A DNA stretch of 64,000 nucleotides from Chrysomallon squamiferum (lineage: Eukaryota; Animalia; Mollusca). The position numbers and the translations under genes are program-made. The stretch spans positions 6,634,001 through 6,698,000 of the forward strand of contig CM022679.1 in assembly GCA_012295275.1 (NCBI GenBank), read 5' to 3'. Position 1 is the stretch's first letter, and each line of letters begins with the position of its first letter. Of this stretch, positions 562 through 27,747 are shown piece after piece. Below the pieces are notes generated by a model. The model worked only from the letters and a program-made list of their open reading frames with translations, did no database searches and was not told the DNA's origin.

Positions 562-997
562 TTATATATCGATCCTGCGGATGTACAGCCCTTTGCTATC
601 TTTTCCAGCTTTCTCGCTCTCATCTTGAACTTTAACAGGGTCAATATTGTCATTAGTGACATTCATAAACCCAACGTAAGGAAGACCAAACTTGTACTGA
701 TTAATATCAGCTTGTGTGTTGTCTTCTAATTCATTGCCCATATCCATAACAGCGTTCTTGTTTTCATAGGACTTATCCAGCTGCGAAGTGGCTTTGAGAT
801 ATATGGAATTGCTCTTTCTGCTCGCGCTGCCATCATTGCTGCGTTTGACGCTTTGTTTCTTAAACTCTGAAGACGTTTCCTGTGGCTCTACTAGCTCTAC
901 TACTGTGGCAGGCTGAGTGACTACATACTTGCCGTCCATGTAAAAGTATGGGTTGTATGTACCTTCGGATAACTCGTCCATGTTCTTGATTCTACCA
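562..997 (-). CDS. Gene A terminal exon: cytoplasmic tail
   Basis: Acceptor tttccag, phase 2. GRIKNMDELSEGTYNPYFYMDGKY...GLYIRRIDI*; GC-richer than its flanks. Confidence 0.8.
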
Positions 998-2105: not shown

Positions 2106-5100
2106 AACAGACTGACCTAATTAACTGACTGTACAAATCAGTGCATTTATACACGTGCTGCATGGTTATTTCTACAGACTAAATTAGCAGATATGTGCAA
2201 GTGTTGATACACTAATATCTGAATTTAACTTTTCTGTATTTTTCAGGAATAATCTGACAAATAATAGGTATAATTAAAATGAAATATTAATGAATATGTA
2301 CTTTGAAAATATTTTTGAATGTCAAAGTAATCTTCAGAATATGCATTCCATTACAAATACATGTGTTGCATGATCAATTATATGTTTAATTTTTAAATAT
2401 TTTAGTTTTAATCAAAATTAATATATAAATAATATGAATGTATTAGTTTCTCGCATTTTCTATATTAACAGCTGTTTGATAGAGCAGTCTTAAAAATACA
2501 GTTATGAATAAAAGAAATTGTAAATATCAGCTTGTGTTTTTTTATTAAGTGTCCGATTCAAAAAAGGCCAATTAATTCTATATTTTTTATAAATGAATTT
2601 TACAAGTTATAAAGGTATATTATTGAAATTTTATTTGGTTGAAACAAATAAAAAGCAGAGAAATACTAACGTCCAAGCTGGTTCATGAAAATATCAAATG
2701 TGCAGTTATTAGTGTCTTAATAAAGACAAAAGTGCAGCTAATGTACCACATACATTCAGAGTGGGATTAATAGTTTCTATGTATCTACAGAGCTATATGT
2801 TAGTGTACTGATTTCTAAATACAGTGTTTTTGTAAGATATTCAAAATTAAACTATACATTATAAAAAAGTATTGATTAAATAAACCCAAGAATAATGTGC
2901 ACTAAAAAGCTCAAATTCTAAATACTGAATATAAAATCTACAAAACAAAAGTGTAATAAAACCCAAATCTTGTCATAAAAATGTACCTCTAACGGTATTA
3001 AGAAATAGCCTTAATACATTTGATATTTCTAAATTATTGTTTTGTTTAACCGTTAGCATATAATATAAAGCTCTTGAAGTTGGATGGAGCTTGACATTTT
3101 TTCTTTATTCTTATTATGTTTTACAGAGAAATGAAGAAATGTCCCAGATAAACTGTGGATAGTGCATGTAACCAGTGAATATATCAGTCTATCTGGGACT
3201 TTTCCACATGTCTCACTGTGAAATAACATTATAATCTGGGGTTTTTTGTTGTTGCTGTTGTTGGTGTTATTTTATTATCATCAGTTACTGATTGGTTGCT
3301 AGAAAACAATTTTTAAAAAGTTTGTAAGAAGCAAAATATATTTAGGTTATTCTTATATTTTATTGAAATAGTATAATAAGTATAAGCAGTGTTATATTTC
3401 AGAAAGAACATTTATTAGAAATTAACATTACATACATGCATACCTACATATATATTACACAAACATACACAGACACACACACCCAGCTTCTCAAATATAT
3501 CCATTAATCCACTGTATCATGCATACACAAATACACATGCATATAACACACAAGTGTGTATAAATAAATAGCCACGTATTCTCAGACAGAGAAATACACA
3601 TGCATGCATACATATTTACTTACCGACAACAGAAACAAGCAAGAACAATGAGTAGTAGAAAAAGGAAGAATGCCAGAGATCCACCAACAGCTCCACCTAT
3701 CACTGCAGACAGATTATCTGCTCTCTCTGGGTAAAACAAATAGAATTTATCACACACTAAGTTACCATATTTACAAGAATTCTCCATTTTTATTTATTTG
3801 CTGTTTTCCTTTGTTTACAAATATATATAAATGAATGGATATTTGCTGGAAGCAACATTGAAACATTTTATTATTTACTGATGAAATTAGAAAGAAACTT
3901 GTCACTGTCACTCTTATCTATAAGAAGTAATGGGTGTTTAATATGAGCTTTCCCTCAGACAGAAAAGAATCACCCTTGATACACCATTTATAGCTCAATT
4001 AGCAATTATTATAATTACTATTATTATTTCTTTTTATACACAGTTCATAACATTCCAACATTTTACAAACATAAAATTATATGTATTTGTAAATTATGAA
4101 TCAGATTTAATAGTGGTAATATTTTTTTGGAAAGTATAAAACATAAAACATGAACACAGGTCTACAACAGTTATGATGGCGAAGAATGTGTAAGGTACTT
4201 ATACTGTATTTTCATCACTAACTGAAAATCCAGTGAACATACCTGCATAATTCTCACAGTGATCACCACTGAAGCGTGTCTGACAAGTGCAGGTCATCCC
4301 ATCTTCAGGTCTGCTTTCATTCCACAAACAAGTGCCACCATTTTGACAGAAATCAGGGGACATTTCACAGGGAGCTACAGATAAAATTTAATGTAATCCT
4401 ACATCAACATAGCTTTATTTGAATGTAAATAATGTAGATGTTGTGTGTACATTTATTAAAACATTAGTTAAACAATGCTTACAAGAATAATAACTGATAA
4501 GATTACATTTGTATATATATATATAAAAAAAAAAAAAAATAAAACTATTATTATTATTTTAAGAAAACAAAGTGTATCTGGTGTCAGAAATGAGGTCTAG
4601 AATACCATGGAATCATGTTTAATAAAATAATTAAAAAATAACAGTGTTCTTATTTAGGATAGAAAGAAAAGAAGAATAAATAATTAAATGAGTCTTTAGA
4701 ATAAATAAAAATAAAATATACAAACAAATGCTACATATTCTAATAGTAAATATTTTAATAAAATATTTTCTTACAAACAAATGCTAAAATTTTGGAGTAA
4801 TACTGCAATATTTTGCATTTTTCCAGTAAACGTAATTAAAACTCAGTGTACTAGAATACAATAATGTATTATATGAAATTTTAAAAATTGTTTGTCAGTT
4901 GTTAGAAATAATTCCTGACATGAAATATGTCATCTGTTTATCTGCAGTATGCAGTAAACATAAAAAAGCTGAACAATTGTACTTACATAAACAGTGCTTT
5001 AACAATGATGCACCTGTTCCATTTGTTCGTCTGTTATTAGGACAGTTTTTACAAAATGTTTTTCCTGATTCATCCTGGTACTGATCAACAGGACATTCTT

Positions 5101-8100
5101 GACACTGCTGTTGCAGTTGCATTGTTCCAGCAGGGCATCTCACTATGGAAACAAATTGATGTAGTCATACAGCACAAATGTGTCTAACAAAATTTCAGTC
5201 ATTTGTCAGATATACATTTTATTAAATAATACATTGAAATATATTAATGAAATTTCACTAATTCATCAGATATAATTTTTATTAATATCAGATAAACATT
5301 TTACTAACTGATATAAAATAAAAGTTTGAATAATAGGTATAATTTTTACTAATATCAGATTTCAGGTTTACTAACTGATTTAAAATGCAAATATAATTAT
5401 TTCTAGCTGATGTCAGATATATTATTTAATTCAGTCAGTCAGTTGTAAATGTTTATTTTATTTATGTTAAATACAAGTTTTACTGAAATACAACATTTTC
5501 TAAAATTTATAAATAATTAAAACAAATTGATATTACATATAACGTCTGTGTGATTTTTTTTATAACAAAATTTAATTCATCTTAATTCCTATATACTTAT
5601 AAAAATTTAAAATAGATTCTTCCTTTCTAAGTTCAGACTTACATTTGCACTGAACTACTGAAGTTGCACCCGTGAATTGTGTGTACTTATACTGAGGACA
5701 TGGCTTGCATGAACTTGATTCAGTTTTATCCTGATAGTAATTAAGAGGACACTTCACACAGATTCCTGATTCTTCTTTGTATCCAGCTGGGCAGTGAGCT
5801 GCAGAAGACATAAAAATTATTGGTATTACAATTTTATAAGCCAGTAGTTTCAGTAATGCAAATTAATAGGTTTTTTTTCTTTCCCATTGTACTTGGAGGT
5901 TATATCACAGTGTATCCACCTACATTTTAAATCTACTCACGAAACTAATATTTAGAAATGGTTTTATTTATTTTTTTGTTGTAATAATAAACAGTTTAAA
6001 ATGTAATCTTTAATAATTATACTATTACTAATCAATTACTGCTTCTAACACTATGACATATTCTATTATTATCATAATTAGGATGAACTACCATTTGTAC
6101 CAGTATTTCTACAAATATTATACTACTACTATTGTATCTAAAAATAATAATAATAATAATAATGAAATTTTAATTATTTAATTTATAAGTAATGTCCTAA
6201 CTACATTTCTAAGATTCAGTGATGAACATTTTCCATGATATTAATTATGACCACTGTGTTATTAAATAAATGGAGTTTCATGCACTCACCAATACACTGA
6301 TCTCGTGAAATAGCACCAGAGATGGATGTGGCTGTGAACTGAGGACATTCCTTACATAACGTGGAATTTGGCTCATCCTGATACTGTCCAGCAGGACATT
6401 TTACACATGTTGCTTTCTGTTCCTTTGTTCCAGTGGGACAGTATACTGTAGAAGAAAACATTACAGTTAGTACATAGTATCATTTCTAAAATAAATAAAT
6501 ATTGTGAAGATTTCTTTAACATTTAATTTTAAAAACATAAATATGCTAATGTATGTACATTATAAGACACAGGTCATAGTTTATTATGGTGTTGTTTTGA
6601 GTATGAAAATTATGTTATCATGGACAAGATATTTAAGAGACATATCTAAAGGCTACAGTTATGTGAAATCAGTGAAATTAAATAAAAACAGATGAATTGT
6701 CTGTAATCAGTTAATAAACTTACAGTAACAATCCATGAGAGATTTGGATCCAACATTTTTTGTTGTTCGAAATTCTGGACAAGCCTTACAAACAGTAGTA
6801 CCAATCTCATCTTGAAACTGGCCTCGAGGACATTTGACACATTCCCCACGCTCTCCCTTTGTGCCAGCCAAACATTTTGCTGTAGTAATAAAATGAAGTA
6901 AAAGACACTGTGAATCATAAAGAAAAACATTGACATTATCACTGAAATAATTATTTAAAAAACCCCAAAACCTACAAGTGCTGACCAGGACAAAAGAAAG
7001 ATGTTATTACTCAGCCCATGTCAGACTACTTGAATGATGCATCTTCAACTAAAGATAGACCAGCCCAAACTGTTTTTATAGAAAACCTGCGTTGAGATGC
7101 TGTGTTGAATAGTAAAGAGATCAAAAGGCACAGAGAAAAAGATTGGTTCCTATAGCCTAGATTTAACTATTAAAAAACTTACGAAAACATTCATTCAGTG
7201 ATGTTGAACCAGTGGTGTTGGTAGTAGTGTACTCAGGACAAGTCTTACAAACTGTTGATCGTATTTCATCCTGGTACTGACCTACAGGACACAGTTCACA
7301 AGAATTTCCTTCATGTTTCATTCCTTTTGGACAGTTCCCTGATTTTATAATCAAATTAATAATAACTTAATTAAATGAAAATATTAATGAACAGCAGCAG
7401 CAACAACAACAGTAACAATAAGAAGAAAGCAACAACAAGTAGATCTACATCAATAATAATATTAAATAAATAAAGAAACAATATTCTGAAAGTTGTCAGT
7501 GATAAACAAAACCTATAACATATATATATATATATTTTACAGGTGAAATGATGATTAACTCACAGAAACACCCAGCTAGCGAAGGAGTTCCTTCAGCAAG
7601 AGTTGTTCTAAATGTAGGACACTGTTTACACTGTGTGGAGTTCATCTCATCTTGATACTGACCTACAGCACACTTCTCACACCTTCCAGACACTATCCTA
7701 GTACCCAGTGGACATTGTACTGGTTAAATAGACAGTAAACATTCTCAACATAAAAAAAAAAAAAAACACAAACAAGCAAATAAATAAATAAATAAACAAA
7801 ATAAATACTTCTTACAACTACCAGACACTGGCTTTTAACCCGATGGACACTGTACTGGTTAAAACAGACAAAATACATACATAGTTTATAAACTTTCTGT
7901 TTACTTTATAGATACAGCTACAAGGGCAAAACTTCATGCAGAAATAATTTAGTAGTTTGAGATGATTAACAGTTTATCAATTAAATGTTATGACAACTGA
8001 TGTTGCATATGTATTATTCAAAATAATGTTCACATTGTTATCAGTTAAACTGAATATCAAAATATATATATATATATGTCTATATAAAATGATTTAAATG

Positions 8101-11100
8101 AAACTACACTGTGCTACATTGTTCAGTATGAATGTAAACTTACAAATACATTGACTCTGTGATGTGCTGCCAGTTTGTTTTGTCACTTTGTTAGGCCCAC
8201 ATGATTTACACAAAGTTTTACCAGTTTCATCCTGGTACCAGCCTCTTGGACATTCTGTACAAGTTCCTGATTCTTGTTTTCTACCAACAGGGCAATGCAC
8301 TACAATTAAAAAGTGATCATTTCTGAGATAATTTCAAAATAATTCCTTTGATTTAAACTATTAAATTATTTAATATTGTATATGCATCCGTAACCCAAGA
8401 AGAAAGTATTAATAATGATAATGATTATGATTATGATGTTGATGATGATGATGATGATGATAACAATAGTTATAATAGCAATCAGAAATATTTATTTACA
8501 TCATTAATTATCCATTTGCTATAGTTTAAGGGTATTTTGCAGATATGCCTATCAAAAAAATGAAATGAAAATAAAAGGTAATATCATGTTTCTATCAGTA
8601 AAACACAGATTAAAAGATGTTACACATGGTAGAGTGTAAGGGCAATTGATTTTTATTTTAAACTATAAACTTACAGAAACACTGAGTAGAAGAAGTTGCT
8701 CCTTGTGAACTTGTGGTGTAATACTGTGGACAGCTTTTACATGTTTTTGCACCTACACCATCTTGATATTGACCAACTGGACACTGCTGGCATGTTCCAG
8801 AAACTGCTTTATACCCAGTAGGACATTGTACTGTAACATAATTATTTTATCCAGCTTATGATTTATTCAGATAAATGTAATTTCCTTCTCTTCATACATA
8901 TACTTAATAAAATAATACATAATACATTTTTGAATACTGTTATCTAAATTCTTAAAAGAGCTGGTTTCTGAAGTCCCTACTGAAGAATTACCTTTGAAAT
9001 GATCAAACAATAACTGAGGTGAGGGAGAATTTTACTGCATATTTGTTTTTATGACATAACCTATATAGTTCCTCAGTGAACAATAAAAAAATAAAAGTGA
9101 ATGATACATGCTACATTCTGTTGTTACATGACAATGTAAAAACAGTTAGAAAAAAATACCCATAATGTTAAATAAAATAAAATATTGATTCATGTTGAAA
9201 ATAGGTAGCAAAATAATTATTGTTTTGATTGGGGTGATTCTTAAAACAACTTATTTTAATTATAAATTCTTAACTTACAGAAGCACTGAGTAGAAGATGT
9301 TGCTCCTTGTGAATTTGTAGTGTAATACTGTGGACAGCTTTTACATGTATTAGCACCTATACCATCTTGATACTGACCAACTGGACACTGCTGACATGTT
9401 CCAGAAACTGCTTTATACCCAACTGGACATTGTACTACAAGAGAAACATTTACACATATTATTAAATAATTTATTATTTCATGATTAAGGCTTGAAAATT
9501 AGTATTCATTTGTAATAACATGTCATTCTAATACCTGTTTTAAATTATAAAGACACATGTTAAAATAAAAGTACAATAAAATGATAAATGTTTTGCTAAA
9601 CTGTCAAAAAGAATGGCTTGTTGTTTTGCAGAACTCATAGTACCACTAAAACTATTTTTGGGGGGTTTCATTTGTCTCTCAGATAAAAAAAAAAAAAAAT
9701 AATAATAAGTACAATAATGGTTATTGTGATGATGATGATGATGATGTTGATGAGAATTATTAAGAAAATATGTAAAAAAGTACTAATTCATCATAAACAA
9801 CACTGATGAGTGTAAACTATTTTGGAATTACCATGAAAATAATACATTCTTTGTTAATACTCTCAACTTACAGATACACTGAGTAGAAGATGTTGCTCCT
9901 TGTGAATTTGTAGTGTAATACTGTGGACAGCTTTTACATGTATTTGCACCTACACCATCTTGATACTGACCAACTGGACACTGCTGACATGTTCCAGAAA
10001 CTGCTTTATACCCAATGGGGCATTGTACTGTAATATTATAAAAATAATTACTGTCTATCTATCTATCTATCTGTATATATAATTTGTGTGTGTGTGTGAT
10101 GTTAAAATTTTAAAATAATAATGTATATGAGATTCTAGTATTTTAACAAAGATGCAGATATCCCACTGATTAGTAGAAAGATATTTTTTTATATATAACA
10201 GTACAAAATGAAAATAAAAGAAAGTTATAATTTTTTATTTTAAAGCAGGAAACTTACAGAAACACTGAATAGAAGATGTTGCTCCTTGTGAACTAGTAGT
10301 GTAATACTGTGGACAGCTTTTACATGTATTTGCACCTACACCATCCTGATACTGACCAACTGGACACTGCTGACATGTTCCAGAAACTTCTCTATAACCA
10401 GCAGGGCATCTTACTGCAGCAATCATAGAAATATTTGGAAATATTATTAAAATGTCTCTGTGTTGCACAATTTCTTCATGGAAATCATTATAAACATGTA
10501 AAAAATATGATAGTTAATCAAATAGCAATTGCAAATAAATAAATACAAATTACAACATGCTTATTGAAAAGTATTGGTTTGTGAAGAAAAATTTAAATGA
10601 ATTATTTATGCTAAATTTGCTCTAAGACAGGACTGTAATAACAATGAAAAAATTCTTATGGTGTTAAAAAAAATATCAAATGAAGATAACTTTTACTGTA
10701 TTTAAGCTAACAGAACATAGATAATAACATGTTGCTTTTCACTGATTGTTAATGCAACCATTTTTAGCTGATCTATCAACTTACAGAAACACTGAGCAGA
10801 AGATGTTGCTCCTTGTGAACTAGTAATGTAATACTGTGGACAGCTTTTACATGTATTTGCACCTACACCATCTTGATACTGACCAACTGGACACTGCTGA
10901 CATGTTCCAGAAACTTGTTTGTACCCAGCAGGACATTGCACTATAAAAATAATATAAATAAATAAATGATAAGTACACATCTTCTCCTTTCGTTATTTAT
11001 TCTTATTCATATTTTGTATAGAATGATTTTTTAATGAAACACTCAGTTTGGTTAATGTGATATCATATATATGATCAAGGACAATCCTGGTAAAATATAT

Positions 11101-14100
11101 ATATATATATAATATAATAGAATTTTAAAAATAATTCTACTAAATACATAAAAGGTTAAGATTTATTGTTTTCTTAATAATAACTACATTTCCTATGGAA
11201 TTCTGTCTATCTCAAGTATTTTAACAACAACAACAGAAATTGTAATAAAAAGTAACATAATGAAGCAGATGATGGTCATACAAAGCTAAACAAAAGATTC
11301 TGTTAAATATGATATTATCATGCTAGAATGCAAATATGATATGAAAAATCAATTTAAACACAAATACTAATTGATGTTTGTAAGTTTCATCATACAAAAA
11401 TAATCTAGAATATTCTATGACTGACAGCCACAGCAACTAATTTTAGTTTTAAACTATCAACTTACAGAAGCACTGAGTAGAAGATGTTGCTCCTTGTGAA
11501 CTTGTGGTGTAATACTGTGGACAGCTTTTACATGTTTTTGCACCAACACCATCTTGATATTGACCAGCTGGACACTGCTGACATGTTCCAGAAACTGCTT
11601 TATACCCAATGGGACACTGTACTGTAACATAATTATTTATAAACATTATGTATGTATCTTATTCTTATGAAGACTAAAGACTTCTTATGGTATGTTTTTC
11701 TTCAGGTAGTATTATTTTCCAAATACAGATATTAAACAAGCATTATTAGGTTATTCAACTAAAAGGTTAGGAACTGGTCTTGTGTTTTGTTATTTAGAAT
11801 TTTTTTATTTTAACAAATAACTCTTCCTGCCCCTCATATAATTTATAAATAATATAAAACATTGACTTTATTTTAATATAACAGTTTTATATGGATCATT
11901 ATAGATTTTAGCAGCACAATTTGTATATTGAATGGTCCTTTTCTAAACTAATAGCTTCACACATTAATAAAAGTTACTCTATAAAGATTTAGAAAGCGTT
12001 AAGAATGTGGTTTAAAATGTTTTCACGAATTAAATAATTCCACTCACTCCTCTATTTAAAAAGTTAGGACATTAAGGTGGGGTACCAGGATTCTGCGATG
12101 GAAGTGTTTTATAAAGTCTAAATGCACATATCTCATTTAACACTGATGCATTGTTTTTCCTTAATAAAACATGAAAACATTATTGCACTGGGAGGGAGGA
12201 CTGTGTCATAGTGTTGAATGAGGATAGTGGAGACATTCTTTTTGACTAGGCTGTTTAGATGGTAGTAATTAGGTGTTTAGAATGAAACAACAAAGTTAAA
12301 ATGAAATTGTTGATCCATATTATTATGTTTAACAGAACATGAAAGAGGTGACAGTGTCTGATACCCATAGCCTGCCAAATACGAGTTTTATACTGTCAAC
12401 TTACTGAAACACAGAGCAGATGATGTTGCGCCTTGTGAAGCTGTAGTGTAATACTGTGGACAGCTTTTACATGTTTTTGCACCTACAACATCCTGATACT
12501 GACCAACTGGACACTGCTGGCATGTTGCAGAAACTTGTTTATAACCAACAGGACATTTCACTGTAACATAATCATTTAAAATATACATATATTTTATTAT
12601 TGCATAACTATTTGATGAAGAATTTTATGAATTGATTATATAGCATAATTTGATAATGTACCTTTCTATTCTAAATATAGGTGCTAAAATAAAAGTTTCA
12701 AAATTTTTTAAAGTTATATTTATGAATATTTAAGAATAGTGGGTTTATTATTTTAAAACTGATAGATTAGGGGAGACAGACACTGGTTTCATCTCATTAT
12801 ATCTGAAACACAGCACTGACAACAAATAACCATTAATAAATAACTTTGAGATTTTAAAACTCTTTTGAAATAATGAAAATAATAAATTACAGGATAATAA
12901 TGAAGATTGTAATGATAATAATTCAGATAAATAATTTGGTATTCAGAAATTTGTATATGTGTGAACTGTTTCTGTTATCAATTACTTTGTAATTGTCAAT
13001 TAGACTCTCAACTTACAGATACACTGAGTAGAAGTTGTTGCTCCTTGTGAATTTGTGGTGTAATACTGTGGACAGCTTTTACATGCATTTGCACCTACAC
13101 CATCTTGATACTGACCAACTGGACACTGCTGACATGTTCCAGAAACTGCTTTATACCCAATGGGGCATTGTACTGTAATATTATAAAAATAATTATCTAT
13201 CTATCTAAATATAATGTGTGTGTGTGATGTTAAAATTTTAAAATAAAATGTATATAATAATTCTAGTATTTTAACAAAAATGCAGATATTAATGATTAGT
13301 AGAAAATATTTTTTTTTATATAAGAATACAAAATGAAAATAAAAAAGTTATAATTTTTTATTCTAAAACTTACAGAAACACTGAGTAGAAGATGTTGCTC
13401 CTTGTGAACTAGTAGTGTAATAAATTTGCACCTACACCATCCTGATCCTGTTTGGACACTGCTGTTGTTTTATAACCAGCAGGGCATCTTACTGCAGCAA
13501 TCTGGAAACATTTGGAAATATTATTAAAATGTGTGCATTGAGTTCATTTTTATAAACATGTAAAAAAATATGATAGTTAATCAAATAGCAATTGCAAAAA
13601 TTCTTATGGTGTTAAACAAAATATCAGGTTTCCAACTGTTGCTTCATACCAGCTGGACATTGTACTGCATTACAAATTAATAATAGAATAAGGCATTCAA
13701 TGTGGATAATGATAAAATACTAGACATTTTAGATAATTTATTATTATAGCAAATTATGGTATTTGCACACACACACACACAATATGAACTACAAATTTTT
13801 CTGAAATATTTAAAATAATTTTTCAATCTTTCAAATGAAGATGTTTTTAAGTTTTTGTTAAACAATACCAAACAAATATGGAATATAATCTGTTTTATGT
13901 CATAAAACTTCATAAATAAGATCAGAAAATGCAACAGCATACAGAACAGTATCCCTCTATCGTTCTTTCTCTAGAAAAAAAAAACAAATTAGAAAAATGT
14001 TCTCTATCAATTTACTACCTTATGATTTAGAGTATTAAAATTATCTTAGACATCTAATCTAGAAAATTTGTGTTTAAATCTTTCTTTTAAATAAATGTGG

Positions 14101-17100
14101 AGTCACACAAACACCTGGTCTGTAAAGATGTCCTCTTTTTATAGAGTTTCATGTGTAATCTGTTTTTTACAAATTACATTTCTTTGTCCAGTTCCTGTCT
14201 TTATATTATTATAGTTGTTTGTGTAACTGAATAAAAATATATTTCTTTATTTTCATTAAAGTGAAATATTAATACTTACAAACACACTGAGTCAGTGACT
14301 TAGACCCACTGTTTAATGTGGTTCTGTACTTAGGACATGATTTGCAATGTGAAGAACCTGGCTCATCTTGGTATTGCCCTAAAGGACACTCAACACATGA
14401 CTGACGTATTTGCATAAAACCAGCTGGACATTGCACTGAAAAACAAAGACATATTTGATTTAGACCAAAACATGAATAAGAATGCAATCACACACACACA
14501 CACACTCCACTCACACACAGCCATATGCACAGACATATACATACACAGAAGTTCTCACACATTACTCAAACATATAAACAAAACACACCACATACACATT
14601 CACACCACCAGTAGTGGTGATAGTAATATTAGTTGTAAGAGTAGTTGTAGTAACAAGATGATGATAAAGAACAATAAATAAATAACTATTAAAATAATGA
14701 TGTTGATGATAAGAATAATGATAATTAAAGAAAACCCACTTACAGACACACTGATCTGCTGATTTTGCTCCTACAATGGTTGTAGTTCTACTTGTTGGAC
14801 ACTCTTTACAGGTAGACTGTCCCTCCTCATCCTGATATTGTCCAGCAGGACACAGTTCACACGTTCCAGACACTTCTTTTGTACCAGTAGGACATCTCAC
14901 TAAAGTAAGAAAATCGCATTTTGTGAACAGCTGATATAATCAGAGTTAAGTTCTTTTTAAATGCTTTTCATATGCCTGTTAATGTTTTGCAAGACAGTTT
15001 TGTTTTGTATTAAAATTGAAATTCTGAAGAATGCTTGACTAGCAAAGATAATGAACTAAGATCCAGCAATCATACAGCATTTCAAAAAGTTAATATTATT
15101 ATTGTGATGGATCCAAGTTAAAATAAAAAATACTGATAGCCAAATAATGAATGATTATGCTGATCCATGTTTAAATATTACAAAAAATGATAGCAAACAT
15201 TTTATTTTTTTATTTATAATCTTTTAATAAATGAGATATATAAGCTGCAGCAAACATTATATATACTTTTACTAAATAATTAATTACAGAAACAAAAGTT
15301 CACTGAAGAGGCCCCTTGTGAAGCAGTGGTCTTAAACTTGGGACAGTCTTTACAAACAGTGGATCCTGCAATGTCCTGATACTGACCAACTGGACAAGCT
15401 ACACATGATCCTGCCTGTGCTTTAGATCCAACTGGACAATGGACTATTAAAAAATTAAAGAATGTGTGGTCAGAATAGAATGTTTTTGATATAAATATAC
15501 TTAATATACAAAGAATTTCCCATCCAAGTAGCGCTGGAAACTTAATTACTTGCAAAAACAATAGTAATACCTATTCAGTTATCATTAAAAATCAGTTTAA
15601 TATTTGGTTGACAATCTAGAAATACATTTATCATACATTAATGATACATCACACAGCATTAAGAAATATCTAGATTTATAAGAACTCACGTGTACACTGG
15701 TTAATGGAAGAGGCTCCTAGTATGTTAGTTATGTGGAATTGTGGACAAGGCTTGCAGCTTGTCTGTCCAGTCAGGTCTTGATAGAAATTCTGTTGACACA
15801 GGACACATGATCCAGATACTTCATACTGACCAGCTGGACACACAACTTGTACAGCTTCAAAATAAATAAATATATAAATAAATAAAAAAATAAAGTTGAA
15901 CAAATCAATACAAAATTATTTAGCTTAATGTAATTTAATTTAAATAATGAAAATATTCTGTTTTATTTCCATATTATATAATACTTATTACAAATTTTTT
16001 AAGTACCATAAATGAGGAAATTATCTATTTTCTTTATGTTGAAGCTCATTTTAGCTAGAACATTATATACTCAACAGTGATCATTTCCTTTCTTCAGACT
16101 GTCACAAAAGACATAGTATACATTTCCAAAGAAATCATCAAAAATAGTTATTCTCTCTTAAGCAGTTGTTACCAAATGGTAAGTAAATCAAATTTTATCT
16201 CTAGAAATTATGTTTGTAAATAAGATTTTAAACAGAGTTTTTAACTGGCGTTAGACATCACTTACAGACACACTGACTGGCAGAAACTGATCCAGATGTC
16301 TTTGTTGTTTTGCCAGCTGGACATGTCTTGCAATAATTAGAACCAATTTCATCTTGATATTGACCAACAGGACAGAGCACACATGTTCCCGTTTGTTCTT
16401 TGTAACCACGTGGACACTGGACTGTTTATATGAAATAGCAGTGTATACAGTACACACTTACATCACTCAGAAAATGTACCACTGACTGAGTTTTTAATAA
16501 AATATGTGTTTATAAATTATTAATTATTCCTCAGAAAATTTAGTAAAATAAATGTGTATCAAATATATTCAGAAAGTATAGAACTGACTGGATGTTTAAT
16601 ATATACGTTAAATATGTGTTGAATATTTTATACTTTGCTAATAGAATTATTAGTTCATTAGTATCAAACTAAAATATGAATAGAACTTACGGAAACACTG
16701 TGCAGTTGAAATTGCTCCTGTTATGTTAGTGGTCATGTTGGGTGGGCATGATTTACATGTTTTTGAACCAATCTGATCTTGATATTCACCAAGTGGGCAG
16801 GGAACACAAGTAAATGATTCTTCTTTCATTCCAGCTGGACATTTCACTGTTAATAATAATTTTAAACAATCACAGTAATAGTCATTAATATGAATGAGTG
16901 TTTTTTTTCTAATATAATGATTTATTAAAATAATTTTAAGTGGTAAAGAATAGTTATTTAAATAAAGATAATAAATTGTTAAAATTTTGAGATGATGAGC
17001 ATGAAGAGCTTGAATGAGTGAATGAATGTATATTTATATACTGTAAAATTTTAAACAAAATTATTCAAATGCTATTAAACATTTGTTTATTAATTGAATA

Positions 17101-19113
17101 ATGTTGATATGAGAGATGGAGGAATTGTGATGTCACCTACTCTTTAGTCTATCCTTACAGATTACCTGTAGTATCTTTTATACACACCTTCACATAGGAG
17201 GGTGCAATGTTTTGTAAACCATTCAAGAAGCACTGGCTGAATGCTATCTAGATAACAGATACACTGAGAAAGACTGATCCCATGAACTATGTATAGATTT
17301 TTGAAAAGCTTCTCATACTCAGGTTTTAATCAAATTTCTGTAGGTAACATGAAGTTTTCTGTTATTTCATCTTATTTCTTCATTATTGTTAAAATAGATG
17401 TTTTAAGATATAATCATCATTAACTCCACCTACTCAACATTATCATCAATAAAATCAATAAAAACAAGAATGTTTTTATTACTAAAACAAATATACTTAC
17501 AATAGCAATCAGTGAATGATGTTGATCCATTTTGATTTGTAGTATAATATTTCGGACACAAATTACAAGTCGTTGTATTTATTTGATCTTGGTAATATCC
17601 AACTGGACATTCTACACATGTGTCAGATACTACTCTTGTACCCTTTGGACATGTAACTGAAATACATAATGACATATTGAAACAGTCATACTTAGAACAG
17701 GACAAATACAGATATAAATATATATTTTGGATGTTTGAAAATCTACAAATATATTCTCGATGTATTATATTAACAAGGCATAGAGAAATATTTAAATTTA
17801 TAAACTCACGTGTACACTGGTTAATGGAAGAGGCTCCTAGTATGTTAGTTATGTGGAATTGTGGACAAGACTTGCAGCTTGTCTGTCCAGTCAAGTCTTG
17901 ATAGAAATTCTGTTGACACAGGACACATGATCCAGACACTTTATATTGACCAACTGGACATACAACTTGTACAGCTTCAAAATAAATAAATTAATAAGGT
18001 TGAACATATCAATAAAACATTATTTAATTTAATTTAATTTAAATAACGAAAATAATCTGTTTTATTTCCATATTATAAAATACATATTACAAATTTTGTT
18101 CTTTCCATAAATGAGGAAATGATCTATTTTTTATATTGAAGCCCATTTTAATTTGTGTGTTATATGCTAAACAGTGATCATTTCATTTCTTCAGACTAAC
18201 CCAAAATACCTACAGTATTATTTCCAAAGAAATCGTCAAAAATATTTATTACCTGTTAAGTAGTTGTTATCAAGTAAGTAAATCAGATTTTCTCACTAGA
18301 AATTATGCTTTTCTGAAAGTAATCATCTAAAATGTATATTCTCTGTTAACCAGCCGACATCATATGATAAGTAAACTAGATTTTATCAGTAAAAACAGGA
18401 TTTTAACTGGGGTTACAGATCACTTACAGACACACTGACTGGCTGAAAGTATAGAACTGACTGGATGTTTAATATACGTTAAATATGTGTTGAATATTTG
18501 ATACTTTGCTAATGGAATTATTAGTTCATTTATATCAAACTAAAATATGAATAGAACTTACAGAAACATTGTGTGGTTGAAATTGCTCCTGTTACATTAG
18601 TGGTCATGTTGGGTGGGCACGATTTACATGTTTTTGAACCAGTCTGATCTTGATATTCACCAAGTGGGCATGGAACACAAGTAAATGATTCTTCTTTCAT
18701 TCCAGCTGGACATTTCACTGTTAATAATCATGAAAACAATAATAATTAATATGCATTGTTATTACACTTTTAAATAATTAACAGAGAAGAAACTCCTGAA
18801 ATTTTGAGATAAACAGTAACTAAAATGAATATCAGCTCAATGACAACTGATAATTCACAAAATAACTGTTTTATGACTGAGGGATAAAGCTTATCCCACC
18901 ACTTCATCGATTAACCTTAACTTATTAAGGTAAACATTCACAAAATACTAACTGGAACGTTAAGCAGACCAGTCAATGTACCGAGAAGGATTAGTCCTAT
19001 GCTATGTGAAATGTTTCATATATCTATTGTCATCAAGTTTTAAAAAATCATTCTTTAAGCAACAAGAAATACATTCTTCTTCTTCTTCTTCATTTTCTTG
19101 TTATTATTATTTG

Positions 19114-19166
<53 letters not shown>

Positions 19167-21142
19167 TACTATTTAACAAAACAGGCATTTTAATGTATCT
19201 TTAAAAAAAAAATTTTTTTATGAAACAGGGTCGTAAACTTGTAAAGAAAAAACCTCAGATGTCGACACTATATTATCCTACTCAGCCAACCCCCCCTAAA
19301 AAAAACCCCGCTGTTTTCATTGTTTCTTATTTTATATTTTTGTTATATATATATATATATATATATTAAGAAAACTAAGCAACAACAACAAAAATATATA
19401 TATATATATATAATTGATTTCAACCAGTGATCGAAAATGTCCAATTGCTTAAATATATACATCATTTCATCAACTCAACCTAGAGCACCAATAAAACAAT
19501 TTCGCTAAAACAAATATACTTACAAAGGCAGTCAGAGAATGATGTTGATCCATTTTGACTTGTAGTATAATATAGAGGACAACTATTACACGTTGTTGTA
19601 TTTATTTGATCTTGGTAATATCCAACTGGACATTCTACACATGTGTCAGATGCTACTCTTGTACCCTTTGGACACGTAACTGAAATACATAATGACAAAT
19701 ATTTATTTTGCACTTGTTTCTATTTAATATATAAAGTATACCATATAGTAAATCCTCATAACGAAGAATTATATTTTGTTGAAAAGTCTCTCACTATCTT
19801 GATGGAGGTTTTCTGCTATTCACTAATCTACCAAGATAGGGCATTAGCCCAATATTACTTAATTGTAAAAGAATTTAAAAATAATTAAAGGCAAATGTAA
19901 TTTAACAAATTCTTTGAAATGGATTCTGGTTCATAAATAAATTGCAGTATGGTTGCTAATTATCAAACATGACAGACATTAACAGTAGGCTAAAAATAAT
20001 TGCGGTAAGTCTGCTAATAACTGTGGTTTTAGGAACCATTCATAATTTTTTATGTTTAAAGAAAGACAAATACAAAGGTAACCAACTTACGGTAACAATA
20101 GTTTATAGATGTGGCTCCTCTGATTGTAGTTTTTTATATTTTGGACATTTTGTGCATCCTGTCATTCCCGTTTTATCTTGGTAGAAACCGTATGCACATT
20201 CCACACATTTATCAAAATTTTCTGCCGTTCCAATGGGGCATGGCTCTGTAATAGTAATAATATTAATATTATAATAATTAGAAGAACAACAACGATAATA
20301 GTTAAATGGCAGAAAGAAAACGTATTCAGTATACTACTTTACAAAATCATTTCTAGAACAACTATTGAAATTTTATTCAGTATTTTTCATGACTAATGAG
20401 CATAAGTGCTGGTTGTCTGAAACTACTGTAAAGTTCTTACCACACATAGTATTGGTGAGGACATATCCAGCCTGCCGACATACTATGGTGATGTTTGTAT
20501 TTGAAACTGACTGAAAAATTAGTCCATATATGTCAATCTGAAAGAATAAAATTATTACACAGTAGATCAGTTTGCATTATATTTATCCATTACTATTCTG
20601 AAAGCATGAAAATAACACTGTAAAAACATTACATATCACATGTGGAGTTGTGAATAAATTAAATTAGTTACTTATAACATTCACTTTGAAATATGCTAAT
20701 CTGAAATAATCAAACAAATAAATAAAGTTAAAAAAACAACAAATTTATGAGTCAATTAAAAGACTGATTATAAAAAGAAACATTTAAATTTATTCCAGTG
20801 CTGATAATTCTTTTATTTATTTTCGTCTTTATCTTCTTCTTCTTATTATTTATTATTATTAAATTTTCATCATTATTATTATTATAATATATTTATTTAT
20901 TTTTGATGAGAGCAGATAAACATTTGCTTTCCTTTTATTTTCAACTAAACAGAATAATGTTCAGGAATAAATTATTGAAAAAATAAAAATCTTATTCTCA
21001 CATAGTTAGCTCATAGCAACTAAAAGAATCATACCAAAGTACTGAAAACTGTCTTGTCAGTAAAATAATCATTGAGAACATTTCTGGTAGATCTAATTTC
21101 TTCAGAACCTGTTGATGTGTTCAGCTTGAGTTCTTGTCTGCA

Positions 21143-21190
<48 letters not shown>

Positions 21191-23832
21191 GCAAATGAAG
21201 TACAGAAGGAAGTTTAAAAAAATAAGATTAATATCGTTTGATTAGATAGGGATCTTTTATATGCACATATTCATAAGCATGAAATTACATCTGAAATTCG
21301 TGATAAACTGATTGCCTAGCCTGAAATGGGAAACTAATGCAATGACTGGTTTGTGCTCTAACCCTGAGCTGCAATCTGCCCGTTATCACCAGTACCACCA
21401 TCACCACCACTACTAAAACTACTGCAGCTCTCACTACTAGTTATTGTTATCATAAAAAAATATTAATGACATCTTTTAAAACCAGCTAATAGTTATTTAA
21501 ATTTAATTTTGATGGATTAAAAAATAATAATAATAATAATAAAAAAAGAAAATAAATGAATAAATAAAGTAGAGAAAAGTAACACATACGGAATAGAGTT
21601 GAATATCAAATCCATTTTTATCGGAATCTGAGTCTGTCGGCGACGACGACCCGAAGACTGACATCCTGTTACAGCACCACTGACGTCCACGTTGTCGCAG
21701 ACCACATTGTTACATATTCCTTCCCACGTGCGATTGAGACGTTTCATCTGACGTCGTGCTTCAGCTCGTAGTGCGTCTGTCATCAACTCCGGCCTGTCAC
21801 ACGACTTTGCTGTAAACTGCATCGTGATTCTGTATGTCATTAAATCCAGCTGCGGAATCACTTCACCACCTAGCAAGAATCAGAACGATATCATGATAAT
21901 TACAATGTGTCTTTCTTTCAAACTTCTTGTTTTCTAGCTAGGTTGTATTAGAAAATACACTTGTAAGAATAGTAACAGTAGTAATTAAAACGAAGTATCA
22001 TACTTGGTAATGGAACACATTCTGCACTTCCCCGCTGAACAGTTTTCTGTCCTTGTGGACATTTTGTACAAAAACGTGACTGAGTGTTTTTGAAATAATT
22101 CATAGAACACTGTTTGCACTGAGAGTCCAGGTAATCGAACTCTTGTCCGGCAGGACACGGAGCTGTAATAATAACAGTGCAAAAACAACAGCAATAATAA
22201 TTATAGCCAGGACAGTTAGAGTAATTATAATAATTTCATTTTAAATTAAACAGTAACATAAAAAAAATATATACCAAATAATTGTATCATTACTGAAATA
22301 ATACACATTACATTATTATTTAGAAAATTACCATAAAACGTTTAGAACTGAGATACCAAGACAATTACAACATATAAATATTAACTTAATTCAATCAGAG
22401 TATTTATGTGATTGTCGAGGATAAATAAGTAACTAAACCTTGCATAACTGAAAATCTGTAAAGACTTCTAATTAATTTCTTTTTTAGAAAATGTTTGTTA
22501 ATATTTTTAAAATGAAAATTTTAACATGAATTAAAACAGATAAATTAAAATGTCAGGTAAGTGAAAACTTACGATGACAAAACTGTTTTCCTGTTGATCT
22601 GGTGGATTTGGTCAGAGTTCCAGAAGGACATGGGATACATACAGGTTGAGATATTTTATCCTGATACTTATCCAGCGCACAGTCAATACAGGTGTATGTT
22701 AAAGAATCCACACGTGTACCAGCCTGACACTGATCTATGAACAATTGCAACATCATTATTGTACTCAACAATAAAAACAACAACAGAAACAATAATACTA
22801 ACACGATCACCATAACAGCAACAAGATACCAAAATAGGGAAATTTAAATTATACAATAATAATAATACATTATATTAATACAATTTTCTTCTTATTATTA
22901 ATGTCGGAAAAATACTTATTTTTCTATCCTGTGCTTAAATATATATGCAAACACAGTAACAGACACACAAATTCTGAATATTTGTATAATGTGTATAGTG
23001 TATAAAGATACATACATATATAGTATATAAACAATACATACATATATACATACATACAAACAAACGTAAATATGTACATACCATCAGACAGATACATACA
23101 TACATATATATATATACATATAAATACGTACCTACAAACACAAACATACATAGATATATGCTTGTTTATTTGTGTTTATCTGTGTTTGTTTTTTATAAAA
23201 AAGAAAGATAAGTGATAACAAATTTTATATTGATATAAGTCATATAAACATCTTGCTATGACAACAGAAATTTATATAATAAAAAAGCCTACAATTGGAG
23301 AATGATTAATGAATACCTTTACTAAACTGAAGTACTTGTTTCAGCTTGGTCAGCAGTGGGAAGTTACCCTCATTACAGAACTGACCATTGAAGTCATCTT
23401 GAGAAATTTCGAATACCATAGCACCTCCTTAGATTCATATCCTTAATGTAATTAGCCTATTAAGAAAATAATAAACATATTTATTAATATACTGTTTTTA
23501 TGAGGTTGACATAACTGAAATTCATAAATGCACTAAATGTCTGAAAATTCATTATTCTATTTCGTTCATTGTGGCTATCATTAAACGAGGATGATTTTTT
23601 GTGAAATGTTGGATATGTTTAGAAAATATTTATTACCTTTATTTCAATACTTTTCTGTGTCTCGTATCCAACCCATTGCGCAGAGTCCCAGGCAAAAGAA
23701 GCATTTTGTTCTTGTTGAAATCCATACTGAAACTGGTATATTGGTTTCGATGTGCTGTCACTGCAAACCTGGAATGAATATAAGTAATGTTAACCTGTAT
23801 CTTACTACTTTTTTTCTGATTCTTTCTCGTTT

Positions 23833-23908
<76 letters not shown>

Positions 23909-24219
23909 TTCATTATCTTTCCGTCACTTACGTTTTCTCTCTCTCTCTTTCACATACTTACCTTATAGTATGGCAAATCATACGATGATGTGAATGGATC
24001 TCCTATTTTATAAAGCGTTTGACTCTTAAGCTGAAAAGCTTTCCCATAGAATGGTATTCCAAGAACAATTTTCTGAGCAGGCATCCCTTTAGACATCCAA
24101 TACCTCACTGCATAGTCCTGTTGCAAGGGAAACAATATTAAAGAAAACTTTAAAAATATAAACCAGATATGTATATACATATATGCATACATGCATATTA
24201 CAAGTATACATAATTTACT

Positions 24220-24287
<68 letters not shown>

Positions 24288-26850
24288 GAAAATGTACATT
24301 CTTACAGCATTTGTATAACTTTGTGGAGGTTGCTGATTAGATCTGGGATACAGTGGGCTGGGATGGTCAATTGTGCTGCTAAAGTTACCCTGGTAATCAT
24401 AAGCCATTATGTTCACAAAGTCGAAATCCCTTAAAACCAAAAAAAAAAAAAAAAAAATAATTTATTAACAAGAACAGTAACAACAAAAACAACAATAATA
24501 ATAATAATGTTAATAATGATGATGATAAAAAATAATAACAACAATATATATGGATGAATGACCAAATGACATAAGAAAAAGCAGGACAGAGATAGAAACT
24601 CAGTTAACTGACAAGTAGTATGTATATTAGATAATGTATCAATTTGCAATAATATATATATATATATATATAAATTGTTTTTAAACGTCCTCTAAAATAC
24701 TGTCTGATGTTAAATCCTTTCTTTTTATTTGCTAAAACTAAAGTATTCAGTATATTACAAGCTTTTATATAGTTTTAAAAACTTACCTTGTCAGGTTATT
24801 TACTTCATAAGAATTATCTATCGTCTGCTTGTTGCCTGAAACCGAGGCTGAAAGAATCAGTTTGCTCTTTGTCGTCTGACTGGCTGCTTCTGTATCAAAC
24901 TTCTGACGAAGTTGCTGTAAGTTTCATCACAAAATTTGAAAACGAGGTAAATTACATGAAAAAATTAGATGTCTTCTAGTTTCTACGTGATATGTGAAAG
25001 CAGGTAATTTATTTATAATTATAAAATAAGTTGTAAACATGAAAATAATTATTTGTACGATTTTGGTTTTTGGATGCATCTGCCTGAGACACTCAAAACA
25101 ATAAAAATACAAAGCAAGTAAGTAAGTAAATAAATAAGTAAAAAGTTAAGACAGTTGTAACAAAATTTAAATTCTTGTCAAACTTATATCGTTTTAATAT
25201 TATCCTGACAATTATTAGATATCACTCACAAACATTTTATGATGAAAACTATCAAATAGTTAATAAATAAATTAATAAAAAGACAAATTATAATTATTAG
25301 ATAAACTATTTTTGTAAGAAAGACGTTTGAAAAAAAAAGTCATTGTACTTTGTTAATGGCTTCTTTTATCTGTTTGAAGCAAAAATTATATTTTACAGTC
25401 ACCTTACCATTTTCAAAAAAAAAAAAAAACATTAAATTTTTATAATAGTCGTGGAGAATTTGGCTGGAATTAAAAATAGCTTCGCCCTTGAAATAAATAC
25501 ATAGATATTATGCATCATTTGATTTAATACAAAGCATTCCAATAACAATACAGTACAATAAAATAATAAATACTATAATAGAAACAGTTAGGTTTTGATA
25601 TGTTTATTTGAAAGTGTTATTTGGGGTTTTAATCTATTATTCCGTCATTCCAAGTTTCGCTTTGTTGACTGGAAAGCTACATTTGCTTAACATTTTTAAA
25701 TAAGAATCAAAAGTTCCATAACAAAATGAAAAAAAAAAAAAAATAATAATAATAATAATAATGATAAAAATAACGATAAACTACGACCAATATCGAGTGC
25801 GTACATGTTGGACCAGTTTTCTGTAGACGCTGTTTAGCGATAACAAAAAATGCTTTCCAATCGGATAATAAAATAACATATCGTTCCTTATTTCGAGCTG
25901 CCTGATGCATGTCAGAAAGTATCCTTGTACCTATATAAATACATTTTAAACATTATATCGAACGAAATATAGTATCTACTTTTTGAATTTAAAACCCCAA
26001 ACTTACTGAAACTAAGACACTGTATCGCTGATTGTCAGTAGAAATTCCGCCGTTTTCGCCAGGAAACTCCCAAACAATGTCCAGTCCGTCGAAGTTACGG
26101 TCACGGAGATATTTAATGACGTTGTCACAGAAAGCATTTATTCGTGTGTCGGTACTAACAACAGCAGAGAATGCAGCTGATGTTTGATTCCAGCCTCCAA
26201 CTGCCAAGAGAACTTTTAGTCCTGATGTCGAGAGTTTTAAATCTGTCACTTTTTTATAATTACCTGAAAAGTCAGTTTACTCTATTAGCAAAAGCATTTT
26301 TTAAATTTTACTTTTCTTGTTTTATTCTTATATTTATAAATATATATATATATATATATATAAAATAGCGCAGAGTACTGAAACCAGGTTTCATTCTAGA
26401 TTTTGTTACTGGATTTTTTGAGAGCTTTGAACTCTATTTTTAGTATATTTTATGTTTTTTTACAATGGTCAGGAATACGCAAACAATGATTTAAGTGAAT
26501 CCAACATATTCGATACATTGTTAATAACAAACAGATTTCGAGACAGCCATTTGGAATTTATTTTTCAATTAAGGCTTACTGGTGTTAGTAAAAATGCCTT
26601 TAGTAAAATTCTAAATCACAAAAAACAAGAGAAAATAAACTGATTGCTAAGGTTGCTAATAATCGTTATACTGCCAGTAATAAATTTCAACGTTGACCAT
26701 TTAGAAAAGTGGCTTTCTAAATAGTGGATTTGAAAGCGGTTTCAGTAATACTAATACTATTCGTGAAAAATCTCCGATCAAAATAATATAATTTCTGTAA
26801 AATTTAAACGTTAAAATAAAAAAGCCGACAAGTCCTTAAAATATAATATA

Positions 26851-26893
<43 letters not shown>

Positions 26894-27747
26894 GAAATAT
26901 GTTTTATGGTCTTCTTTTGAAAATTAGCACCTGATCTAAAACACCAGTGGGTTGGTTTCTTGTTCGTTTTTCCATCCCGCCCCCTTTTTCCAAAAAATGT
27001 TTTATTTTCTAATTAAAAAAAAAAATGTTTTAAACATAATTTTCAAATCCAAAGATGATATTTATTTACTACTGTTATCATAGAAACCATCAACACCGGC
27101 ATCACCTCTATGCTGCTATTTCTACCATCATTATTACTTATTTTATTGTTGTTGTTGTTATTATTATTACAGAGCAGTGCTCAACAGAAATCTTTTATAA
27201 ATATGATTTCTGTCAAGATAAAACAGAAACAAAGTATCAAGTATATAATTAGGGGAGTCACATCTATAAACAAGTGTTTTCGTAAGGTTGTTATCTCTAT
27301 ATCTTATCTGTTACGTAAACCATATATGACTTATATAACATAAAATTTGTTTTTGAATTTTGTTGTTATTATTTTGTTATTATATAATTTCACATCTATA
27401 AACAAGTGTTTTCGTAAGGTTGTTATTTTATCAGTTATTATTGACTTTATAACAAAACTGTTTTATTATTCTTTCCATAATGATCATCATCATCGTCATT
27501 ATTTAATTAAAAAAATGAACCACAAAGTTATGGTATTTGAGTAATAAGAAAAATGTTTACCGTTTAAACCGTCGTCGTTGGATTCTGTAGTTCCAAGCGA
27601 ATTGGTGTCAGGAAGGATTTTGGCGAACGCATACACAATGTGAGTACACAGGGATGGGTTGATGTTCTCAGGATTAAACTGCATGACCGCAGGGCGGTAC
27701 TGAGCCCAGTTGGCATAGTAACAAACACGTTTATAATCTGCGTTGAC

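Follow-up and report, generated by a model that had tools for sequence, protein, structure and literature searches.

How did a chitinase-type surface protein come to carry a stalk of 26 repeats, and is the length of that stalk set by splicing or by copy number? The question is raised by a gene on the minus strand of a 64,000-nucleotide (nt) stretch of contig CM022679.1 (hereafter, the window). Its predicted product of about 2,230 amino acid residues is arranged in the order of signal peptide, GH18 domain, two Ephrin_rec_like repeats, SEA-like domain with an RRRR loop, 26 repeats, EGF domain, transmembrane segment, and tail, and the exons coding for the part ahead of the tail add up to 6,272 nt. 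According to the original prediction for this locus, the stalk exons could act as a molecular ruler or generate combinatorial diversity. We consider, with a probability of about 0.68, that the stalk is a long, mostly constitutive, extended tether that arose in this lineage by tandem exon duplication from a single stalk repeat.

Stalk exons, related proteins, and history of the array

The 26 phase 1-1 repeat exons predicted within 4987–20245 were all located on the minus strand, flanked by AG and GT. Their description as symmetric and nearly all exactly 156 nt in length held for 25 of them, which are open, 156 nt long, phase 1-1, and individually frame-preserving; the exon at 20091–20245 is 155 nt long, and its frame is broken. 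As predicted, each exon encodes one six-Cys repeat, with the six Cys at identical positions in all 25 intact exons, and skipping would keep the frame, with no stop codon across the 378 possible skip junctions. Counting with a fixed pattern yielded 25 such exons in the region, none elsewhere in the window, and none in 50 base shuffles. All four stalk exons that were scanned matched Ephrin_rec_like (PF07699) with 43.9–52 bits (cut-off, 23.1 bits). One stalk repeat was modelled at a predicted local distance difference test (pLDDT) value of 94.6 and matched a thyroglobulin segment with an E-value of 3e-4 and a template modelling score of 0.95; weaker matches to Eph ectodomains, the calcium-sensing receptor, and mastigoneme filaments had E-values that were not significant. 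Four broken exon remnants inside the array, as well as the two further repeats and the SEA-like domain between the stalk and the GH18 head, had been missed in the original prediction, and so had the furin-type loop of that domain and the change in the catalytic motif of the head.

The closest GH18 domain was that of the partial protein P0001 from Gigantopelta aegis (73%), which is sister to the window's GH18 with a support of 100/100, suggesting that the source organism is likely a gastropod. The window's GH18 and all repeat-bearing relatives fell into one clade, the support of which (94/87) is slightly under the threshold of the tool. Of three protein searches, two were limited to 2000 and 1413 residues and the third to the best 150. 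Among 294 proteins scanned, 12 carried the repeats, and these came from four Haliotis species (two paralogues) and Patella caerulea. The order of GH18, repeats, linker, single post-linker repeat, and EGF was found in all 12. Two repeats precede the SEA-like domain in 11 proteins and one in the remaining protein; in P0178 from Haliotis rubra, precisely the first pre-SEA repeat is missing with the frame kept, which may reflect exon loss, skipping, or a gene-model error.

These abalone and limpet proteins (XP_046352701.2, XP_071107641.1, and KAK6171442.1) share with the window protein the GH18 domain, two repeats, SEA-like domain, repeat, EGF domain, transmembrane segment, and tail, as well as the conserved Cys and Trp residues of the linker. 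They have one stalk repeat and 761–951 residues, whereas the window protein has 26 and about 2,230, respectively. The comparison of repeat counts with related species, which had been suggested as a check, therefore gave one stalk repeat in 12 of 12 proteins versus 26 here, and stalk length is 26-fold different between species. The mean scores of the stalk repeats were 96–111 against the post-SEA repeat of the relatives, 58–78 against the pre-SEA repeats, and 82–97 against the repeats of a large neighbouring gene. The single post-SEA repeat in all 12 relatives and the closeness of the stalk repeats to it suggest that one repeat is likely ancestral among the relatives found and that 26 is likely derived. 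Descent of the stalk from the repeats of the neighbouring gene is less likely, because on average the stalk repeats score higher against the post-SEA repeat of the relatives themselves. The abalone and limpet family of GH18–Ephrin_rec_like proteins, here represented by database entries, is unstudied. No description of the layout of GH18, repeat, SEA, repeat, EGF, and transmembrane segment was found in searches of open-access main texts, although supplementary domain tables could list it. The accessible part of PMC7560691 mentions neither ephrin nor EGF, and the accessible parts of PMC3374290, PMC6003135, PMC11261597, and PMC3340373 do not describe the chitinase protein of the window.

The stalk repeats (numbered as in Table 1) differ in age. 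Repeats 20–26 and 9–11 are the oldest, being 47–62% identical, and repeats 12–19 are recent, being 85–98% identical, with 98% between repeats 12 and 17. A block of four exons at 15.6–17.7 kilobases (kb) (15690, 16266, 16691, and 17501) was duplicated to 17.7–19.7 kb, where the tandem copy consists of 17810, a remnant at 18427, 18562, and 19524, one exon having thus been reduced to a remnant. The exon pairs of block and copy are 96, 94, and 90% identical, and the block alignments 83–94%. A second duplication, between 9859–10535 and 13004–13598, left a 118-nt broken exon and a 38-nt remnant. The array grew by single-exon and block duplications. Starting from a single stalk repeat exon, as in the abalone and limpet relatives, tandem duplication in this lineage would have been followed by birth and death of exons, with unequal crossing-over between copies adding and removing units; phase 1-1 would then simply be the condition for a duplicate exon to survive. 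Complement receptor 1 and kringle IV-2 of apolipoprotein(a) likewise consist of tandem exon-coded modules, the number of which is altered by unequal crossing-over, as proposed here. The module differs, and allelic variation is established in those systems but only hinted at here. The recent stalk copies are under purifying selection, as the synonymous difference (pS, 0.170) exceeded the nonsynonymous difference (pN, 0.058; pN/pS, about 0.34) when pooled over 29 non-independent exon pairs with at least 85% identity.

Variation in repeat number and splicing

The proposal that copy number sets stalk length was borne out between species, with traceable recent duplications and losses, whereas within the species there was only a hint of it. 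Contigs of four DNA runs (X1, X2, X4, and X7; three studies), one of which may be from the window's own sample, were aligned to 3500–19150; 15 of 69 joints were listed, and bin depth was not taken as copy number. The listed contig pieces cover 9, 6, 8, and 6 complete stalk exons, ordered as in the window, and no contig spans the array. In three of the four runs (X2, X4, and X7), a contig connects 16521 with 18445. In X7, the connected piece differs from 15902–16521 by 37 letters and 17 gap letters, and it is not the window's second copy either (43 mismatches and 11+11 gaps). In X1, X2, and X4, a contig departs from the exon at 17894 and continues in sequence absent from the window. These contigs carry letters of the 15690-type copy and then break mid-exon, possibly in a third, truncated copy. 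The joins and breaks hint at either a haplotype that has diverged or an additional block copy, and they give no repeat count. Most of the listed long joints were treated as noise, their sides being only 21–24 letters in AT-rich introns. A 67-nt intronic piece, 5283–5349, is missing from the contigs of X1, X2, and X7, and the X4 contig breaks there.

Stalk length may also vary between individuals. That repeat number is polymorphic, the array being unstable with or without a functional effect, would be compatible with a tether grown by exon duplication, and we rate this possibility at somewhat less than even odds. The join in X2, X4, and X7 and the break-off in X1, X2, and X4 argue for it, but a divergent allele would leave such signals too, as would a copy that this assembly has collapsed, and the older repeats keep the window's order in the listed contig pieces. 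Moreover, the contigs break within the recent cluster, which hides in-register changes, and depth gives no copy number.

Regulated exon skipping, which would yield isoforms of varied stalk length and make the stalk a ruler tuned by splicing, appears improbable. Skipping would be tolerated by the reading frame at all 378 junctions, remnants with intact ends, if real, imply as much, and two stalk exons (15690–15845 and 17810–17965) have a weak AAG acceptor together with a second in-frame acceptor 9 nt upstream. P0178, if not a gene-model error, is short of exactly one pre-SEA repeat, and in human genes alternative exons are enriched in symmetric ones, as stated in the accessible part of PMC3632108. 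On the other hand, 25 of 26 stalk exons have GTAAGT or GTGAGT as their donor, compared with 5 among the 14 remaining internal exons (raw counts, the copies sharing descent), and such near-consensus donors weakly favor inclusion. The repeat exons of the neighbouring gene in the window are equally symmetric (3/3 phase 1-1; 159, 156, and 171 nt), and only frame-preserving duplicates survive in a tandem array; phase 1-1 symmetry is therefore a property of the repeat module, which permits skipping without showing it. None of three annotated abalone isoform pairs differed by a repeat; the differences consisted of a duplicated stretch of 17 residues, a shortened N-terminus, or a C-terminus without the transmembrane segment. 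P0291 (Haliotis cracherodii isoform X2) ends in another C-terminus after the EGF domain, without a transmembrane segment, and may be a secreted form.

The 25 longest of 235 inverted repeats were low-complexity AT runs, with no docking-site-like pairs among these 25, the kind of pairing expected in arrays of the Dscam type. Dscam also contains arrays of duplicated exons, but these are mutually exclusive variants of a binding surface, whereas the exons here can chain in frame. The combinatorial diversity that had been envisaged for the stalk is unlikely to matter, as the eight central repeats are 85–98% identical and the predicted ligand-binding head is invariant.

The SEA-like linker and the GH18 head

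The linker between the head and the stalk aligns to its abalone and limpet counterparts, and four Cys and one Trp are invariant. The abalone linker, modelled from six sequences (pLDDT 77), had its best match in the SEA domain of GPR126 (370–506; Z 9.0, root-mean-square deviation 3.7, and 109 aligned; VIA-align). A MUC16-like SEA domain came next with Z 7.5, a score also reached by unrelated ferredoxin-like folds. Foldseek gave no match with E < 0.001 for this model, Pfam scans gave no SEA match, and a homolog search with the SEA-like exon alone gave no match among 111 candidates. The Atlas leads for this exon were all below 0.9, one of them being a SEA cluster. The RRRRQ motif lies in a low-confidence loop (74–84) of the abalone model, between strands 63–69 and 87–99; this loop is common to the window and one abalone paralogue, and the limpet has RRKR.

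In GPR126, Notch, and MUC1, the halves of the cleaved SEA domain remain together until they are pulled apart by force, according to the accessible part of PMC6954182, and this behavior suggests that the head of the window protein might be sheddable. Like the SEA domains of those proteins (PMC6954182), the putative SEA-like fold of the window protein, with a cleavage-type loop between its strands, lies between a distal head and a membrane-proximal part. The window protein has no seven-transmembrane, Notch, or mucin domains, and its cleavage is predicted from the loop sequence. If furin cuts the RRRR loop, the head would stay attached until it is pulled or shed.

Of four GH18 exon open reading frames scanned, three passed the PF00704 cut-off alone, and the fourth had an E-value of 6e-5; relatives in the PDB were AMCase and chitotriosidase. 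As assembled, the DxDxE motif of active chitinases is not intact: the window has DGLDIVWE, in which the middle Asp is replaced by Val, the GTT codon being one base from Asp. The motif of the closest relative, P0001, is intact (FDGLDIDWEFP). The triad of human chitotriosidase is Asp136, Asp138, and Glu140, and the central Asp138 binds the acetamido group of the substrate, as given in the part of PMC12502790 available to us. In addition, GGAMxWE near the C-terminus of the domain in the relatives is GGAMVFE in the window, a conserved Trp being replaced by Phe. Given these two substitutions, the head would be expected to bind chitin with weak or no hydrolysis. The abalone and limpet motifs are intact (FDGLDLDWEYP) or lack the Glu (DGVDIDWVWP and DGVDIAWVWP), whereas the window keeps the Glu and loses the middle Asp. 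With the Glu lost in one abalone paralogue and the middle Asp in the window, the family may have lost catalysis on more than one occasion. The chitinase-like lectins YKL-40 and Ym1, whose PDB chains were among the window's matches, have a GH18 fold with substitutions in DxDxE as in the window. They are soluble and typically lack the Glu of this motif; in contrast, the window head retains it and is predicted to be tethered. The oyster Ca-Chit, as described in the accessible part of PMC4457423, resembles the window protein in being a molluscan GH18 protein with a spacer and a putative membrane anchor; it has two GH18 domains and a Thr-rich spacer, and no stalk of Cys repeats is described there, unlike here.

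In its most elaborate form, the ruler proposal would have a telescopic stalk of 26 modules, its length set per tissue by skipping and per individual by repeat number, place a chitin-binding head with crippled catalysis, which furin could release, at a selected depth within a layer of chitin (for example, the periostracum, radula, or gut lining); we regard this as quite unlikely. More doubtful still is that the gene is a decaying pseudogene, in which the frame changes at 20130–20135 and about 23430, the replacement of the catalytic Asp by Val, and the four remnants would be real losses. Against this, 25 of 26 stalk exons keep an open frame and their full set of six Cys, pN/pS is about 0.34, and silent changes make up four of the five differences listed for exons 7183, 12405, 14280, and 15690. 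In addition, the neighbouring gene changes frame in an A-run and has an exact duplication on both sides of an N gap, which suggests that this contig contains assembly errors. Both frame changes of the chitinase gene are likewise likely to be assembly errors, judging from these two features of its neighbour. Least probable is that part of the array is an artefact with haplotypes or repeats written twice, for although assembly errors are visible nearby, the intronic piece 5283–5349 is missing from the contigs of three runs and broken in the fourth, and repeats 12 and 17 are 98% identical, most copies are only 47–65% identical, the duplicated blocks differ by 6–17% with many indels, the runs differ from the window by only about 0.5% in long pieces, and all 30 bins were covered in all four runs.

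Gene features, neighbouring gene, and meaning of the stalk

The features of the chitinase-type gene are listed in Table 1.

Table 1. Features of the chitinase-type gene, in window positions
Feature	Position	Strand	Basis or remark
First coding exon, predicted signal peptide (MISF...LLLLFSGT)	28506..28569	-	Hydrophobic N-terminus read from translation
GH18 domain, 7 exons	23323..27746	-	Pfam PF00704; tblastn with Gigantopelta and Haliotis proteins
GH18 exons	27561-27746, 26007-26263, 24787-24914, 24306-24429, 23962-24117, 23637-23768, 23323-23456	-	Phases consistent up to last exon
Val codon GTT at middle Asp of DxDxE	26073..26075	-	FDGLDIVWEFP
Frame change, last GH18 exon (134 nt, 1 base surplus for neighbouring phases)	23425..23435	-	About 23430
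Two Ephrin_rec_like exons preceding SEA-like domain	22573-22734 (162 nt), 22004-22162 (159 nt)	-	Phase 1-1
SEA-like domain, 3 exons, SGRRRRQ furin-type loop	21590-21869, 21035-21137, 20441-20537	-	Alignment to abalone/limpet linker
Stalk repeat 1, 155 nt, frame change in A-run 20130-20135	20091..20245	-	As assembled
Stalk repeats 2-8, four-exon block and tandem copy	15690..19679	-	Pair identities and block alignments
Stalk repeats 9-11, old, diverged	14280-14435, 14744-14899, 15288-15443	-	Exon identities
Stalk repeats 12-19, recent cluster of eight exons	8675..13172	-	Identity matrix and tree, support 93
Stalk repeats 20-26, old, diverged, 47-62% mutual identity	4987..8299	-	Exon identities
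Putative broken copy (118 nt) of repeat 16, splice sites intact at both ends	13374..13491	-	Inclusion would shift frame
5' remnant of repeat exon, 38 nt	13628..13665	-	Within gap-free run-X1 contig piece 13569-15712
39-nt remnant with acceptor, possible donor, in-frame stop	7816..7854	-	Sequence scan
3' remnant of copy of repeat 7 (16266-16421)	18427..18445	-	Block alignment
EGF exon	4243..4374	-	Pfam PF00008 above cut-off
Predicted transmembrane exon IGGAVGGSLAFFLFLLLIVLACFCC	3624..3726	-	Translation; GGAVGG start as in abalone and limpet proteins
Last coding exon, 144-residue predicted cytoplasmic tail	562..997	-	Translation

The neighbouring gene, which is uninflatable/SVEP1-like, occupies about 40500–64000 on the plus strand, head-to-head with the chitinase gene, and extends past the window. 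C-type lectin, EGF, HYR, and Ephrin_rec_like exons were identified by Pfam, and LDLa, CUB, and CCP were read from translations; the domain list of Drosophila Uif, in the accessible part of PMC3340373, resembles that of this gene. Its EGF exon at 53401–53594 has a frame change in an A-run, a likely assembly error. An identical CCP-type exon occurs at 50256–50439 and 50929–51112, on either side of a 200-N gap (50469–50668), and the pair lies within an exactly duplicated 473-nt stretch, which is likely an assembly duplication.

Several points weigh against a mostly constitutive tether derived from one repeat and joined to a releasable head. Long-stalked relatives could have escaped the searches (at most 2000 residues, at most 1413 residues, and the best 150), and the Gigantopelta proteins are partial. 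Constitutive splicing was deduced from splice-site sequence only, and the abalone isoform comparison is weak, since those genes hold one stalk repeat. Two remnants keep splice-like ends and, if real, must be skipped, so that some exon selection would take place. The SEA match, with Z 9.0 over a background of 7–8, came from a six-sequence model of the abalone domain, and one abalone paralogue lacks the basic loop. As assembled, the chitinase gene carries two frame changes.

A mostly constitutively spliced stalk would form a tether holding the GH18 head far from the membrane. An extended disulfide-rich module can be estimated at about 3 nm, and 26 such modules could reach about 80 nm if extended. 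If skipping were regulated, the stalk would be a simple ruler, set by splicing, on a chitin-binding head. On present evidence, the best reading is that exons were duplicated in tandem, in the ordinary way, in a gastropod family that is unstudied. The locus provides a clear natural example of a gastropod surface protein that is conserved in other respects but whose stalk has changed 26-fold in length, and the short-stalked abalone orthologues allow a direct comparison of reach and function.

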